A DNA stretch of 60,104 nt from contig JAFZIQ010000149.1 of NCBI GenBank assembly GCA_017554285.1, positions 1-60,104 of the forward strand, written 5' to 3'. The translations under genes were made by a program, and so were the position numbers. This DNA is from Selenomonadaceae bacterium (GTDB taxonomy: Bacteria; Bacillota; Negativicutes; Selenomonadales; Selenomonadaceae). Shown one piece after another: positions 1 through 60,104 of this stretch. The notes below the pieces were generated by a model, which was not told the origin of the DNA, did no database searches, and saw only the letters and a list, made by a program, of their open reading frames with translations. How positions within the stretch are numbered: the stretch's first letter is position 1; each line of letters begins with the position of its first letter.

Positions 1-17
1 TAATCCCTAATCCCTAA
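1..17. repeat. Heptamer array (TAATCCC x2), cut by the window edge
   Basis: TAATCCCTAATCCCTAA lies directly downstream of the fliF stop. Same vocabulary as the right arms at 57883-57902. Confidence 0.7.
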
Positions 18-23
18 GAAAAA

Positions 24-1796
24 TTATTCGTCCGAGATAATCCACATTTTTATAAGCCAAGCAACTTCTTCCGGTTTCTCGTTGATAAGTTTCAAGATAG
101 CCTCTTTTTCCATGAGAAGTCGTCTTTCTTCGGGCGTAAGATTATCTTCCTCAGTTTCTTCGTCGGATTCTTCGCCGTTTTCGCCCTTCATTGCTTTGGC
201 AACCATTTCGGCTTCGGCAGCGGCAGCCTCAGCAGCTTCAGCAGCGGCAAGTTGTTGCCGTTCTTCTTCAAGCCGTTTAACTTCTTCTTCAAGCCGTCGG
301 GCTTCTTCTTCCTTGCGCCGTTGTTCTTCTTCGGCTCGACGTTGTTCTTCTTCTTGGCGTCTTTTTTCTTCGCGAGCTTTTCTTTCCGCCGCAAGTTGTG
401 CCTCTATTGCCGCTTGACGCTCTTTGCGTTTTCTCCAGCGATACATGAGGAATCCGCCTAATATTAATGCCGCAAGTAAAATCATAGCCGCAATCTCCGT
501 ATAGAAAATTCTGTCTTTGCGTAATTGTTCAAGTCGTGCCTCTTCCGCCAATCTGTCTTTCAAATCGGTATTGAACGGCAACGGCTCAACCGATATTGTG
601 TCGCCGCGATCTTCATTTATGCCCGCCGCTGACCCTACCGCTCGCATAAGCCCTTCGCGTTGCAAGTCGGTTATTTCGTCGCTGACTAAAACGGCAACGG
701 TAAGGCGGCGAATTGAGCCCGGCGACGCTATGATTTTTTGATTCTCTTCATTGATTTCATAATTCCTTGTTGACTCTTTACGCTCGTATTCGGCATTGGC
801 ATTTCTGTCTTCGGCAACGTAGCCCGGTATATTGCTTTGAATACCCACGCCGCCGCCCGGGGCATTTGATTCGCCGCTGTAACTTTCGCTGATGTCCTGT
901 TGACTGCGAATAATGCCCGAATCGTCTACTACGGGCGTGAAGGTTTGACGATCTATTTTTCTGTCGTCAAAATCCAACTCGACGCTGACTCGCACGAAGG
1001 CATTTCCTACGCCGAGTGTTTTATCAAGCATGGTTTGAACATTTTGCTGAATATGGTCGCGGACTTTCTTTGTCATTTCTATTTGATTCAGCGTCCGCAA
1101 ATTCATCTGCATTTCTTTTTCTAAATCGTCATCTTCATTTTTGTTAAGAATATTGCCTTGCTCGTCGATGATTGTGATATTTTCGGGCGCGAGTCCTTGA
1201 ACGCTGTGGCTGACCAAATTCACAATGCCCTTAACTTCCGGCTTGGTTAATTCCGTCCCCGGTTTAAGCATAAGGAGGATTGATGCCGTTGCGGGCTTTT
1301 CATTTTTCTTATAAAGGCTGTCCTCCGGTAAAACTATATGAACACGCGCTTTATCAACCGTGCCCAAATGTTCGATTGTGCGAGTAAGTTCGCCCTGTAA
1401 TGCTTGGAGGTAATTTATTTTGTTTTGAAATTCGGTGACGCCCAACTTGCTGTCGTCGAAGAGTTCAAAACCTTTATTGCCGCGTGGCAAACCTGCCGAA
1501 GCCAATTCGAGTCGCAAATTGTGAACTTGATTGGCGGGTACCAAAATTGTCGCGCCCTTTTTATCCTCAACCAAATCGTAGGGAACACCGTTTTCCTTAA
1601 GGTTGTTCACAACGTCGCCGGCATCTTTCGTCTCCAAATTGGTATACAGCGGCACATAATCGGGCTTACTGCCGTACCAGAAACTGATTCCGATAAATGC
1701 AAGCGCAAGGGCAATGAGTCCGCCGATAAAACCGTATTTGCGTCTTTTGTCGAATCGGTTCCATATTTCACGAAGCCGCTCTCTCCAATTCGCCAA
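24..1796 (-). CDS. fliF: Flagellar M-ring protein FliF
   Basis: 590-aa ORF with an N-terminal TM (GFIGGLIALALAFIGISFW), a long periplasmic ring region and a second TM (IAAMILLAALILGGFLMY). It follows flgB-flgC-fliE in the canonical order. TTG start with an AAAGGA SD. The C-terminal helix EERRLLMEKEAILKLINEKPEEVAWLIKMW fits a FliG-binding tail. Confidence 0.93.
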   Translation of the reverse strand: MANWRERLREIWNRFDKRRKYGFIGGLIALALAFIGISFWYGSKPDYVPLYTNLETKDAGDVVNNLKENGVPYDLVEDKKGATILVPANQVHNLRLELASAGLPRGNKGFELFDDSKLGVTEFQNKINYLQALQGELTRTIEHLGTVDKARVHIVLPEDSLYKKNEKPATASILLMLKPGTELTKPEVKGIVNLVSHSVQGLAPENITIIDEQGNILNKNEDDDLEKEMQMNLRTLNQIEMTKKVRDHIQQNVQTMLDKTLGVGNAFVRVSVELDFDDRKIDRQTFTPVVDDSGIIRSQQDISESYSGESNAPGGGVGIQSNIPGYVAEDRNANAEYERKESTRNYEINEENQKIIASPGSIRRLTVAVLVSDEITDLQREGLMRAVGSAAGINEDRGDTISVEPLPFNTDLKDRLAEEARLEQLRKDRIFYTEIAAMILLAALILGGFLMYRWRKRKERQAAIEAQLAAERKAREEKRRQEEEQRRAEEEQRRKEEEARRLEEEVKRLEEERQQLAAAEAAEAAAAEAEMVAKAMKGENGEESDEETEEDNLTPEERRLLMEKEAILKLINEKPEEVAWLIKMWIISDE

Positions 1797-1814
1797 TAAA
1801 CTCAGTCCTTTCTA

Positions 1815-1876
1815 GGGGTCAGGGGTCAGGGGTCAGGAGCCAAGATTTTTCCCTAACACCTAACACCTGACACCTA
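1815..1876. repeat. Inverted heptamer-array hairpin between fliE and fliF
   Basis: GGGGTCA x3 plus GGAGCCA, loop AGATTTTT, then CCCTAAC ACCTAAC ACCTGAC ACC. The arms pair with one mismatch per repeat. The right arm overlaps the fliE stop. Confidence 0.8.
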
Positions 1877-2176
1877 CACTTGCATCCGCATGATTTCTTG
1901 ATATGCTGCTGTTGCACGATTCCGCAACTGAAGTGTTAATTGGAGCGCGATCTCCGCTTTTTGAGCCGCAACCACCACTTGAGATATATCTTCTATTCTG
2001 CCCGTTGCGAGTGCCGCATTCATTCTTCCCGATTCGAGTTCGAGTTCGTTTGTTTTTTTCAGAGCGTCAACCATAAATTCCCAGAAACTTTTAACCGGCT
2101 CTTCGATTTTGTTTTCGCCAATATGACTGTGTGCACTCATTTTTACGGGTGTCATTTCCAACGGCGTTATTTCCAT
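1874..2176 (-). CDS. fliE: Flagellar hook-basal body complex protein FliE
   Basis: 100 aa. The C-terminus (QLRNRATAAYQEIMRMQV) is typical of FliE. Position between flgC and fliF. Confidence 0.9.
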   Translation of the reverse strand: MEITPLEMTPVKMSAHSHIGENKIEEPVKSFWEFMVDALKKTNELELESGRMNAALATGRIEDISQVVVAAQKAEIALQLTLQLRNRATAAYQEIMRMQV

Positions 2177-2198
2177 CTTGTCACCTTCCTTTTTATTT

Positions 2199-59247: not shown

Positions 59248-59269
59248 AATCATAAACCTTGTAAAAATT

Positions 59270-59306
59270 ATCCTCTGTCGAAATTTGCGGCGGAGGATTT
59301 TTTTTG
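59270..59306 (+). terminator. Intrinsic terminator
   Basis: 11-bp stem ATCCTCTGTCG / CGGCGGAGGAT (with G-U pairs), a 7-nt loop and a T-run at 59298-59306. Confidence 0.75.
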
Positions 59307-59337
59307 TTATCATGGTAAAAATTTTATCCAAAAAACG

Positions 59338-59573
59338 GCAAGAATACCCCCGCCTCTTAGGCGGCGGGAGGAATTGCCAATTGACTTTGTAACTATCAAA
59401 TGATATATTCCGGTTGTGGATGACTACCACGTTAAAAAAGTGTAATTTTAAAAGTAAGCGGAACCCGAAAGGCGACCGTGTGTGGGCGACTTGGACTCGC
59501 CTTTGAGAATAAGGGTTGCATAAATCAAACTTCTCATGAATCCCCCGCCACGCGGTGGGAGGTTCAAAGGATT
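59338..59573 (+). mobile_element. Second, shorter copy of the hairpin-bounded element family, in the folE2 upstream region (boundaries approximate)
   Basis: The left end AGAATACCCCCGCCTCTTAGGCGGCGGGAGGAAT nearly matches the minus-strand left end of the 11361-11741 insert (AGAATTCCCCCGCCTCTATAGGCGGCGGGATGAAT). The right end has hairpin CCCGCC-ACGC-GGTGGG followed by GTTCA. The interior is different and shorter. Confidence 0.5.
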
Positions 59574-59589
59574 CGGAGACAAAAACTTT

Positions 59590-60104
59590 ATGACAGACGT
59601 ACAAAATCAGCCCGACCTGCGCGGGATAAAAATACAAAGAACAGGCGTCACAAAAGTACACCTGCCGTTTTTTATTTCGGACGGCGATAAAATTCAACAG
59701 GTCACCGCGCAGATTCGATTTGCAGTATCGTTGGCAGAAAATCTGCGCGGGACGCACATGAGCCGCTTAACGGAAATTTTAACCGATTGGACGAGCCGCC
59801 CGATTGGAATCCCCGACGTTGAAAAAATTTTGCTTGAGGCGATTGAAAAACTTTCGACTGATTTCGCCGCCATAACGATTGCCTTTAAATTCTTTATGGA
59901 GAAATTTTCGCCCGTGTCCGAAAAAATTTCTCTGTCGGTTGTTGACTGCGAATTTATAGGCGAAATTACTCGCGGCAGTCGCATGAAATTTACTTTGGGC
60001 TTGATTGTGCCGTTTACGTCGCTTTGTCCGTGCAGTAAGGAAATTTCTGATTTTGGAGCGCACAATCAACGTTCGGTCTGTCGCGCTAAATTGACTTTCA
60101 AGAA
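59590..60104 (+). CDS. folE2: GTP cyclohydrolase FolE2/MptA family (5' partial, runs off the window)
   Basis: ATG 59590 lies behind a GGAG SD. The translation contains RGTHMSRL and SLCPCSKEISDFGAHNQRS, characteristic of type 2 GTP cyclohydrolase I. It is absent from the ORF track because no stop codon falls in the window. Confidence 0.8.
   Translation, partial: MTDVQNQPDLRGIKIQRTGVTKVHLPFFISDGDKIQQVTAQIRFAVSLAENLRGTHMSRLTEILTDWTSRPIGIPDVEKILLEAIEKLSTDFAAITIAFKFFMEKFSPVSEKISLSVVDCEFIGEITRGSRMKFTLGLIVPFTSLCPCSKEISDFGAHNQRSVCRAKLTFK

Follow-up and report, generated by a model that had tools for sequence, protein, structure and literature searches.

A stretch of 60,104 nt from an uncultured rumen member of the Selenomonadaceae (Negativicutes), contig JAFZIQ010000149.1 of the Selenomonadaceae bacterium assembly GCA_017554285.1 (hereafter the window, meaning this whole stretch), is densely populated by a short word with the consensus Y-CGCGCAG-D-T-T, where Y is C or T and D is any base except C. 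The word is a lineage-specific, hyper-abundant and strand-symmetric genomic tag of the uncultured rumen Selenomonadaceae clade to which this organism belongs. In each species of the clade new copies keep arising while others disappear, so that their abundance must be sustained by a persistent force favouring the exact word. By analogy with the DNA uptake sequences (DUS) of Neisseriaceae and the uptake signal sequences (USS) of Pasteurellaceae, we consider it possible, with a probability of roughly 0.45, that the word is a transformation-linked self tag that owes its abundance to a drive from sequence-specific uptake and recombination.

Abundance and form of the word

Exact counting across the 60.1 kb recovered 30 copies of CGCGCAG on the + strand and 30 copies of its complement CTGCGCG, and 43 of these 60 heptamers extend to the octamers CCGCGCAG and CTGCGCGG (23 + 20). 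These figures reproduce the 30:30 split and the 43 octamers reported in an initial annotation of this DNA, which had been made by eye; its coordinates were also right apart from two typing errors (28432 for 28422 and 3829 for 3828). That annotation had weighed the counts against an expectation of 2-3 copies per orientation, which agrees with the zero-order value (4.1 on both strands together) and is too low as a null because the window is very CpG-rich, with an observed/expected CpG ratio of 1.63 at a guanine-cytosine (GC) content of 44.6%, close to the ~45% estimated earlier. Markov models of order 1, 2, and 3 for the window predict 12.4, 10.2, and 8.0 heptamers, respectively, and 2.3-2.5 octamers. 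Codon-preserving shuffles (n = 500), which kept protein sequences and codon usage and left intergenic DNA fixed, had been proposed in the annotation as a check that could overturn the claim; they gave totals of 15.6 heptamers and 7.5 octamers, including 6 heptamers and 5 octamers in the fixed intergenic DNA, with a maximum of 16 heptamers per strand. Within coding DNA, 54 heptamers and 38 octamers were observed compared to ~10 and 2.5 after shuffling, so that the counts under this null fall far below those observed and it fails as an explanation. The excess over the nulls in the window is ~6-fold for the heptamer and 15-18-fold for the octamer, and CGCGCAG scores highest of all 7-mers. A pool of 292 kb of clade DNA gave a consistent result: 267 heptamers and 164 octamers were counted, where an order-3 model with the motif masked predicts 38.5 and 10.9, respectively. 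The enrichment is also exact: one-mismatch variants at core positions occur at about 1x expectation, and the neighbours AGCGCAG and GGCGCAG, put at about 7 copies each on the + strand in the annotation, number 8 each.

Alignment of the 60 window copies confines the information in the word to positions -1 through +3. The base at -1 is C in 43 copies, T in 13 and A in the other 4, so that G does not occur there; the position after the final G is A, G or T, with C in 0/60; and T and T follow this position in ~60% of copies. Pooling 266 clade copies yielded the same logo (C after the final G in 3/266; C or T as the 5' base in 81%). The annotation had described the downstream context as usually A or G and then T/A; the logo shows a not-C position that also admits T, followed by TT. 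Flanks beyond -1 and +3 are at background, indicating that the copies are not pieces of a longer repeat. The word is a near-palindrome, C-Y-GCGC-R-G, only two transitions away from its own complement; the annotation had correctly called it non-palindromic, as CCGCGCAG and CTGCGCGG differ at two positions, and had noticed neither the near-palindrome nor the not-C-then-TT extension. Of the two palindromic siblings in the clade pool, CCGCGCGG is depleted (8 observed, 28 expected; P ~1e-5) and CTGCGCAG is at expectation (6 observed, 4.2 expected), and because neither true palindrome is enriched, recognition appears to be intrinsically asymmetric. Several other classes of element were considered and rejected. 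Interspersed repeats of the repetitive extragenic palindrome (REP) or miniature inverted-repeat transposable element (MITE) type are ruled out because the word is short and intragenic (~90% of copies lie within genes, and no extended sequence of at least 20 nt is shared); Z-DNA tracts were rejected since CGCGCG is not enriched, and an RNA-level signal since there is no sense bias.

The abundance of the word is independent of coding. Window copies span all six frames, with 28 in sense, 26 in antisense and the rest intergenic, extending the initial observation that the motif is read in at least three ways in proteins. Spacing is Poisson-like, with a coefficient of variation of 0.97 and a largest gap of 4.0 kb. 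The order of orientations along the window has no polarity switch and the cumulative GC skew climbs steadily, so the window spans no origin or terminus that could hide two opposite skews. Strand symmetry holds well beyond this stretch: 308 kb of clade DNA carries 0.95 copies/kb (150 + and 142 -), 76 kb of the same genome is split 41:44, and loci from other species are split 11:9, 10:8, 8:9, 13:10, and so on. Every related locus is strand-balanced (chi-square 6.9, 17 degrees of freedom), more evenly than the binomial expectation. The rejection of a Chi-type or FtsK-orienting signal, made initially from the equal strand counts, is thus borne out. Among adjacent copies, opposite orientations outnumber like ones (158 vs 112 overall; 15 vs 2 in L003 and 2 vs 10 in L005, two of the related loci described below), a signal that we regard as weak because the loci are partly orthologous and heterogeneous.

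Distribution and turnover among related genomes

The window GuaA protein is 75-90% identical to homologs in uncultured rumen Selenomonadaceae metagenome-assembled genomes from cattle, goat, sheep, reindeer, and roe deer. For comparison we used ten loci from a genome collection, each from a different species (L001-L010), ten further clade contigs found by a metagenome scan with TamB as the query, and contigs from other assemblies (L091-L097), including conspecifics that are 99.8-100% identical to the window and reach past both of its ends. The heptamer occurs at 0.44-2.9 copies/kb in L001-L009, which range in GC from 39 to 57% and in CpG observed/expected ratio from 1.4 to 1.75, and at 0.4-1.8 copies/kb in the ten TamB-derived contigs, the most distant of which (TamB 48% identity) carries 1.3 copies/kb. 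Altogether, the word is carried by ~19 related species-level genomes or contigs. The nearer outgroup L010 (GuaA 75% identity) has 0 copies in 16 kb though it is equally CpG-rich, which indicates that CpG excess and motif are separable. Enrichment is also missing from Selenomonas ruminantium (0.09 heptamers/kb) and Mitsuokella (0.5/kb at a GC of 55%, with no octamer), and the word is at background in 60 Lachnospiraceae loci; CpG ratios in Selenomonas, Mitsuokella, and Lachnospiraceae are ~0.9-1.2. Outside the window, conspecific contigs of the same species carry 16 copies in 10 kb and 9 copies in 5.9 kb (25 in 15.9 kb). The annotation had asked whether the enrichment might be confined to the window; given its presence beyond the window and in relatives, we conclude that it is a trait of the genome and of the clade.

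A scan of IMG/VR for convergent octamer pairs returned at least 120 loci, almost all of them chance matches in high-GC phages (median GC 65%), and none of the matches listed bore the clade signature. Literature searches for the octamer itself returned primer matches only, searches on uptake sequences in Selenomonas, Veillonella or Negativicutes found no earlier report of this word, and the Quinella genome paper yielded no information about competence, pili or restriction-modification. Stretches of 5-6 kb that lack the motif cover a sucrose phosphotransferase system/GH32/PIN segment (L001:1-5343) and an open reading frame for a giant surface protein of 3285 aa (L004:7-9864).

Orthologous alignments revealed high turnover of individual copies, with 33 sites shared with a relative, 58 found only in the window, and 60 found only in the relative; gains and losses between species are roughly equal. 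Across all pairwise comparisons, 32% of copies are matched identically in the orthologue, compared to 25% of composition-matched 7-mers and 20% of 7-mers in general. Site conservation is thus barely above background, which suggests that abundance is kept by continual replenishment; single copies are not conserved functional sites. Among orthologous states one step away from the word, changes fall at every position and include both transitions and transversions, the commonest being the synonymous CAA/CAG (TTG/CTG) wobble. Gains often combine a cluster of changes and alter the protein, such as K to R, or TR, AQ, and AR at one guaA position. The fate of neighbouring copies varies: the sense copy in guaA (CCGCGCAGTTT, 8660-8667, +) is missing at the orthologous position in 6 related species, and one copy in a menaquinone-biosynthesis gene (CCGCGCAGATG, 9047-9054, +) is kept in 5/7 species. 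Orientation flips were found at two orthologous positions, one at 8902-8909 in the same menaquinone-biosynthesis gene (CCGCGCAGGAT, +; same orientation in L001, L003, and L006) and the other at a guaA position orthologous to L001:10305. At these flipped sites CCGCGCAG is present in the window and/or L001, L002, L003, and L006, and CTGCGCGG in L004 and L005, a change that needs two transitions by way of a palindromic intermediate.

Conspecific contigs differ from the window at few positions, and no single-nucleotide polymorphism (SNP) among six conspecific loci touches a motif copy. The SNPs are clustered, with 4-5 falling within 33-60 bp (4714-4774, 6122-6155, and 13814-13861; L091, L094, L095, and L097). 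Such tight clusters on a 99.9% identical background point to short-tract recombination in the population; the clusters do not identify its route, and a search for their donor identified none. From window position 1818 onward, upstream of fliF, the L096 sequence departs abruptly from that of the window.

Copies, gene content and composition of the window

The window encodes ordinary chromosomal functions, including a flagellar basal body, metK, guaA, Mla components, TamB, BamA, three flagellins, obg, a hybrid kinase, and a Tad/Flp locus, and Rfam and tRNA scans of it returned no matches. Near its left end, the flgC-like rod gene carries two sense copies (CCGCGCAGAGA, 2310-2317, -; CCGCGCAGTTG, 2444-2451, -), the ROK gene one in sense (CCGCGCAGAAT, 3458-3465, +) and one in antisense (CCGCGCAGAAG, 3828-3835, -), and an ATP-binding cassette permease gene one in sense (CCGCGCAGATT, 5701-5708, +). 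Following the guaA and menaquinone copies described above, a further copy in the menaquinone-biosynthesis gene is antisense and of the heptamer form (TCGCGCAGATT, 9105-9112, -), and a Gate-domain membrane protein gene has one antisense copy (TCGCGCAGATT, 10320-10327, +). The next ~1.3 kb (11075-12418) lacks a convincing gene, its sole open reading frame being a 107-aa fragment with RTX-like GGxGxD repeats (11658-11981, -), and may represent the remains of a pseudogene with a promoter region after it. Two convergent intergenic copies, both CCGCGCAGATT, lie 137 bp apart in this region (12248-12255, +; 12386-12393, -); the second sits upstream of the gene at 12419 and directly follows a TATAAT, in agreement with the initial description of CTGCGCG at 12386 immediately after a -10 box. 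That gene (12419-16117) encodes a 1232-aa protein, kept in a conspecific contig, with a weak match to an actin/MreB-like ATPase domain at residues ~700-860 and no other recognisable domain; it holds two sense copies (CCGCGCAGATT, 13149-13156, +; CCGCGCAGGTC, 14970-14977, +) and two antisense ones (TCGCGCAGACT, 15446-15453, -; TCGCGCAGTTT, 15814-15821, -).

The next stretch is likewise populated on both strands. mlaE has one antisense copy (CCGCGCAGACT, 17250-17257, -); the HlyD-like gene has two in antisense (CCGCGCAGATT, 19785-19792, -; TCGCGCAGATT, 20725-20732, -) and two in sense (CCGCGCAGGAA, 20120-20127, +; CCGCGCAGATT, 20507-20514, +); and the OEP/TolC-like gene has one in sense (TCGCGCAGGTT, 21930-21937, +). 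Four copies fall in the tamB-like gene, two antisense (TCGCGCAGAGC, 22696-22703, -; CCGCGCAGAAT, 23098-23105, -) and two sense (CCGCGCAGAAT, 23501-23508, +; CCGCGCAGAAG, 24291-24298, +), and four in bamA, three antisense (TCGCGCAGAGC, 27419-27426, -; CCGCGCAGTGC, 28607-28614, -; CCGCGCAGACT, 28682-28689, -) and one sense, of the heptamer form (ACGCGCAGTAT, 28421-28428, +). The U32-family gene carries three sense copies (CCGCGCAGGTT, 29789-29796, -; TCGCGCAGGTT, 30110-30117, -; CCGCGCAGTTG, 30607-30614, -) and one antisense copy (CCGCGCAGATA, 30494-30501, +), and all four copies in the GT41/TPR gene are antisense (CCGCGCAGAGT, 31845-31852, +; ACGCGCAGAAT, 32256-32263, +; CCGCGCAGGTT, 32882-32889, +; CCGCGCAGATG, 33165-33172, +). 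Density is lowest from 33166 to 40265, at 1 copy in 7 kb, over three tandem flagellin genes (34188-35645, 35921-37231, and 37544-38464) and obg; the sole copy in 33.2-40.2 kb is a sense copy in a flagellin gene (CCGCGCAGGCT, 37167-37174, +).

Further right, trmK has two antisense copies (CCGCGCAGATT, 40264-40271, +; ACGCGCAGATT, 40391-40398, +) and one sense copy (CCGCGCAGGCT, 40681-40688, -), followed by an intergenic copy (TCGCGCAGAGA, 40792-40799, -) and an antisense copy in the hybrid histidine kinase gene (CCGCGCAGATA, 41567-41574, -). The low-molecular-weight phosphatase gene and the thioredoxin-reductase-like gene each hold one sense copy (TCGCGCAGGTT, 43908-43915, +, and CCGCGCAGATG, 44628-44635, +, respectively) and one antisense copy (CCGCGCAGAAT, 44021-44028, -, and CCGCGCAGAGC, 44707-44714, -, respectively). 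An intergenic copy at 46405-46412 (CCGCGCAGGTT, +) supplies the 3' side of the stem in a bidirectional terminator-like hairpin (46394-46415) located where two genes converge; the annotation had recognised the hairpin and had misplaced the copy in its loop. The Tad/Flp pilus locus (48097-57232, -) is complete, encoding RcpC/CpaB, a secretin, ParA-like, TadZ-like, and TadB-like proteins, an Flp pilin (51166-51396), a TadE-like protein (50634-50990), a CpaF ATPase, and a TadC-like protein. It contains sense copies in the tadC-like gene (CCGCGCAGGTA, 48750-48757, -), the cpaF/tadA ATPase gene (CCGCGCAGTCC, 49365-49372, -), the tadB-like gene (TCGCGCAGGCT, 51956-51963, -), the secretin gene (ACGCGCAGTGC, 54963-54970, -), and cpaB/rcpC (CCGCGCAGATT, 56357-56364, -), and antisense copies in the tadZ-like gene (TCGCGCAGGTT, 53186-53193, +) and the secretin gene (CCGCGCAGTTT, 55610-55617, +); an intergenic copy follows (CCGCGCAGGTT, 57452-57459, +). 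The last three copies fall within a GCHY-1 family gene on the + strand whose start lies near 59590, as placed by the gene call on conspecific contig L092. One is antisense (CCGCGCAGGTC, 59617-59624, -), and the other two, both CCGCGCAGATT (59705-59712, +, left arm; 59743-59750, -, right arm), form an inverted repeat, CCGCGCAGATT...AATCTGCGCGG, that pairs perfectly over 11 bp around a loop of 27 nt and has a predicted energy of -28.7 kcal/mol (z = -3.7); this hairpin lies in the coding region and not at the gene end. Past the left end of the window a conspecific contig (L094) encodes MutS and RsmB, and ~2-5 kb past its right end L092 encodes an AddB-type helicase-nuclease subunit (L092:14154-17342), whose presence implies that the organism should have a Chi sequence of its own.

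Short palindromes are avoided to an extreme degree across the clade, as counted in the window, L001-L009, and L081-L090, which points to a heavy shared load of Type II restriction systems. Observed and expected counts are 4 and 406 for GGCGCC, 12 and 366 for CCGCGG, 10 and 286 for CAATTG, 22 and 358 for TTCGAA, and 6 and 112 for AGCGCT; ratios to expectation are 0.06 for GGCC, 0.23 for GATC, 0.03 for CCGCGG, 0.03 for CAATTG, and 0.06 for TTCGAA; and only 12 of the 2135 clade GCGC sites take the HaeII-type form RGCGCY. Compared to the window, contig L081 contains a 3.6-kb insertion (L081:2313-5885) between the mlaF and mlaD orthologues (window ~18436-18455), which encodes a C5 cytosine DNA methyltransferase, an Eco47II-like restriction endonuclease, and a PARG/RCC1-repeat protein. 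This insertion is a mobile restriction-modification cassette with host-like CpG content, and this one cassette carries 2 motif copies in 3.6 kb. A regular-expression screen for DNA methyltransferase motifs in ~400 kb of clade DNA found only the L081 cassette, which is unrelated to the word. A separate peculiarity of composition is an asymmetry of A/T tracts: AAAATTTT outnumbers TTTTAAAA by 271 to 37 in the clade and by 42 to 6 in the window, AAATTT outnumbers TTTAAA by 878 to 212 in the clade, and AAAATTT is more than 10-fold enriched even in the 56% GC species L004 (32 observed, 2.5 expected). This asymmetry could result from avoidance of DraI/SruI-type sites or from selection on bent DNA.

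Possible origins and significance of the word

Known classes of hyper-abundant oligomers comprise Chi, uptake signal sequences, and HIP1, the highly iterated palindrome of cyanobacteria (PMC4390886). HIP1 itself is now reported to enhance transformation (bioRxiv 10.64898/2026.06.24.733823). The word most resembles the uptake sequences, and the likeness to DUS and USS proposed in the initial annotation is supported by genomic signatures, in that density is ~1/kb, the strands are symmetric, the word is non-palindromic, the clade conserves it despite site turnover, and it occurs in coding and non-coding DNA alike. Like the Neisseriaceae DUS (GCCGTCTGAA with its dialects, recognised by ComP, a minor pilin), it is a short non-palindromic word present about once per kb on both strands, within and between genes, which is common to related species, varies at its edge (here the 5' base), and is maintained even as sites turn over. 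It differs from the DUS in that its sequence is unrelated and belongs to another phylum, its exact core is shorter, at 7-8 nt with a weak 3-nt extension, its form is near-palindromic, and inverted-pair terminators are rare. The Pasteurellaceae USS (AAGTGCGGT, with AT-rich flanks) shares its density, strand symmetry, and T-rich downstream flank, and in both cases most copies are intragenic, occupy several frames, and impose amino-acid changes; spacing is notably even for USS and random here, and one-mismatch variants are not enriched here. HIP1 (GCGATCGC) is likewise an octamer at least 15-fold over-represented across a lineage, in coding and non-coding DNA, with a possible link to transformation and methylation, but it is a true palindrome, whereas here the palindromic siblings are depleted (CCGCGCGG) or at expectation (CTGCGCAG); HIP1 sites are also reportedly conserved and periodic, and the copies described here turn over and are Poisson-spaced. 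The word is therefore distinctive in its host phylum, its asymmetric near-palindromic form, and its coexistence with extraordinary avoidance of restriction palindromes.

In the mechanism that we propose, a protein of DNA uptake or transformation would prefer double-stranded DNA bearing the word, fragments with the word from relatives would be taken up and recombined more often, and new copies would spread through this molecular drive; either orientation would serve equally because the reader would see duplex DNA. We infer both the process of uptake and the reader protein from the genomic pattern. The Tad/Flp locus is a speculative candidate for the uptake machinery; Flp/Tad-dependent transformation has been documented in Micrococcus luteus (PMC4322843) and Liberibacter crescens (PMC8513845). 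The initial annotation had suggested such a link; the locus is indeed present and complete, and its tie to uptake and to the motif stays speculative.

Several points weigh against this proposal. We know of no natural transformation in Selenomonadaceae, and to our knowledge sequence-specific uptake has never been shown in Firmicutes. No competence genes, type IVa pilus or DNA-binding pilin are encoded in the window, leaving the Tad locus as circumstantial evidence, and there is no DNA methyltransferase among the window genes. The specificity of the word, with one-mismatch variants at expectation, is sharper than the picture known for USS. Intergenic DNA has hardly any excess of copies, if any (5-6 of 60), unlike in DUS and USS, and terminator-type inverted pairs, which are frequent for both, are rare here, being represented by one single-copy hairpin and one intragenic pair.

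The main rival, second to the transformation-linked tag and in our judgement unlikely, is a methylation watermark resembling HIP1, in which an asymmetric DNA methyltransferase, either an orphan or one of the Type IIG/III style, would act on the word, whose abundance would be favoured in that methylated copies help incoming or resident DNA survive or recombine; this idea may overlap with transformation. The specificity of the word, with 7-8 exact bases plus a not-C position resembles that of methyltransferases and restriction enzymes, the clade is under extreme restriction pressure and has a mobile restriction-modification cassette in L081, and HIP1 is bound up with two methyltransferases, with an effect on transformation that is reportedly methylation-dependent. 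The watermark is weakened by the lack of a methyltransferase in the window and by the pairing of the sole one in ~400 kb with an Eco47II-like enzyme (GGNCC type), as well as by the fact that restriction targets are normally avoided and not enriched; moreover, HIP1 sites are reported to be conserved between genomes (PMC5861425), and conservation here is barely above controls. A bias in repair or gene conversion that plays no part in horizontal transfer, arising from motif-specific repair or nicking akin to very short patch (VSP) repair, seems improbable to us. Abundance by replenishment instead of site conservation would fit such a process, the clade CpG excess of 1.4-1.75 hints at peculiar repair or mutation biases, and the palindromic sibling CCGCGCGG is depleted (8 against 28). 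A VSP-like bias nevertheless fits poorly, because gains use all mutation types, at every position and by transitions and transversions without any single T-to-C type of correction, and because T- or A-containing donor words are not depleted. In E. coli, effects of the VSP type stay below ~2-fold, far smaller than the 15-fold seen here, and L010 has the CpG excess without the motif. Slightly less probable again is a binding site for an abundant chromosome-organising or other DNA-binding protein, with selection acting on overall density. The word is dense, orientation-independent, and intragenic, adjacent copies are more often opposite (158 vs 112), and strand counts are more even than binomial; against this, spacing is random and not regular, turnover is high, the alternation rests on partly orthologous loci and varies between them, and no nucleoid protein is known to us that binds an exact, asymmetric 8-bp site occurring at 1/kb.

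A hotspot for AddAB resembling Chi, or a polar motif resembling the FtsK-orienting polar sequences (KOPS), is close to refuted. Chi (RecBCD/AddAB) and KOPS/SRS motifs are likewise over-represented 5-8-mers scattered in genes, an AddB gene lies just past the window (L092 14154-17342), and the last four bases of the G-rich form CTGCGCGG, GCGG, also close the Chi sequences of Bacillus subtilis (AGCGG) and Staphylococcus aureus (GAAGCGG). Those motifs are skewed to the leading strand and enriched only a few-fold, however, and known Chi sequences fall far under 15-fold; this class is excluded because neither the window nor any clade locus has a strand skew and because enrichment of at least 15-fold is too large. 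Least credible of all is a by-product of composition, whether of CpG richness, codon or dipeptide usage, or restriction-site avoidance. The near-prohibition of GCGC-containing palindromes does shift GCGC contexts toward YGCGCR in a background of CpG 1.63, but under order-3 Markov models and codon shuffles the excess is still 6- to 15-fold, the motif accounts for only 12.5% of GCGC sites with no other context near that share, and the excess appears at GC contents of 39-57%, in all frames and intergenic DNA, and is missing from CpG-rich L010. A codon or dipeptide artefact and an escape product of restriction avoidance are thus both excluded by the nulls, the GC range, and the CpG-rich relative without the word.

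The transformation-linked tag may also be framed more specifically, and a shade less probably than in its general form, as the first sequence-specific tag for DNA uptake or self-recognition in Firmicutes (Negativicutes). The near-palindrome YCGCGCAGD would then mediate kin-preferring transformation in a lineage walled in by an exceptional restriction load, with a component of the Tad/Flp or a type IV pilus, or a methylation-coupled reader, as candidate readers. Whatever its origin, the word is a very specific marker for binning and recognising clade DNA in metagenomes; it could help to spot foreign islands in clade genomes and could improve the transformation of future isolates. Sequence-biased uptake is established in only two proteobacterial families, with cyanobacterial HIP1 now drawn toward the same idea. 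If the proposal is correct, an independent case in a diderm Firmicute of the rumen would suggest that genomic self tags evolve repeatedly, and would provide a new system for studying the reading of such tags and the effect of molecular drive on proteins. Intense, kin-restricted gene flow among abundant uncultured bacteria of the rumen would be a further implication.

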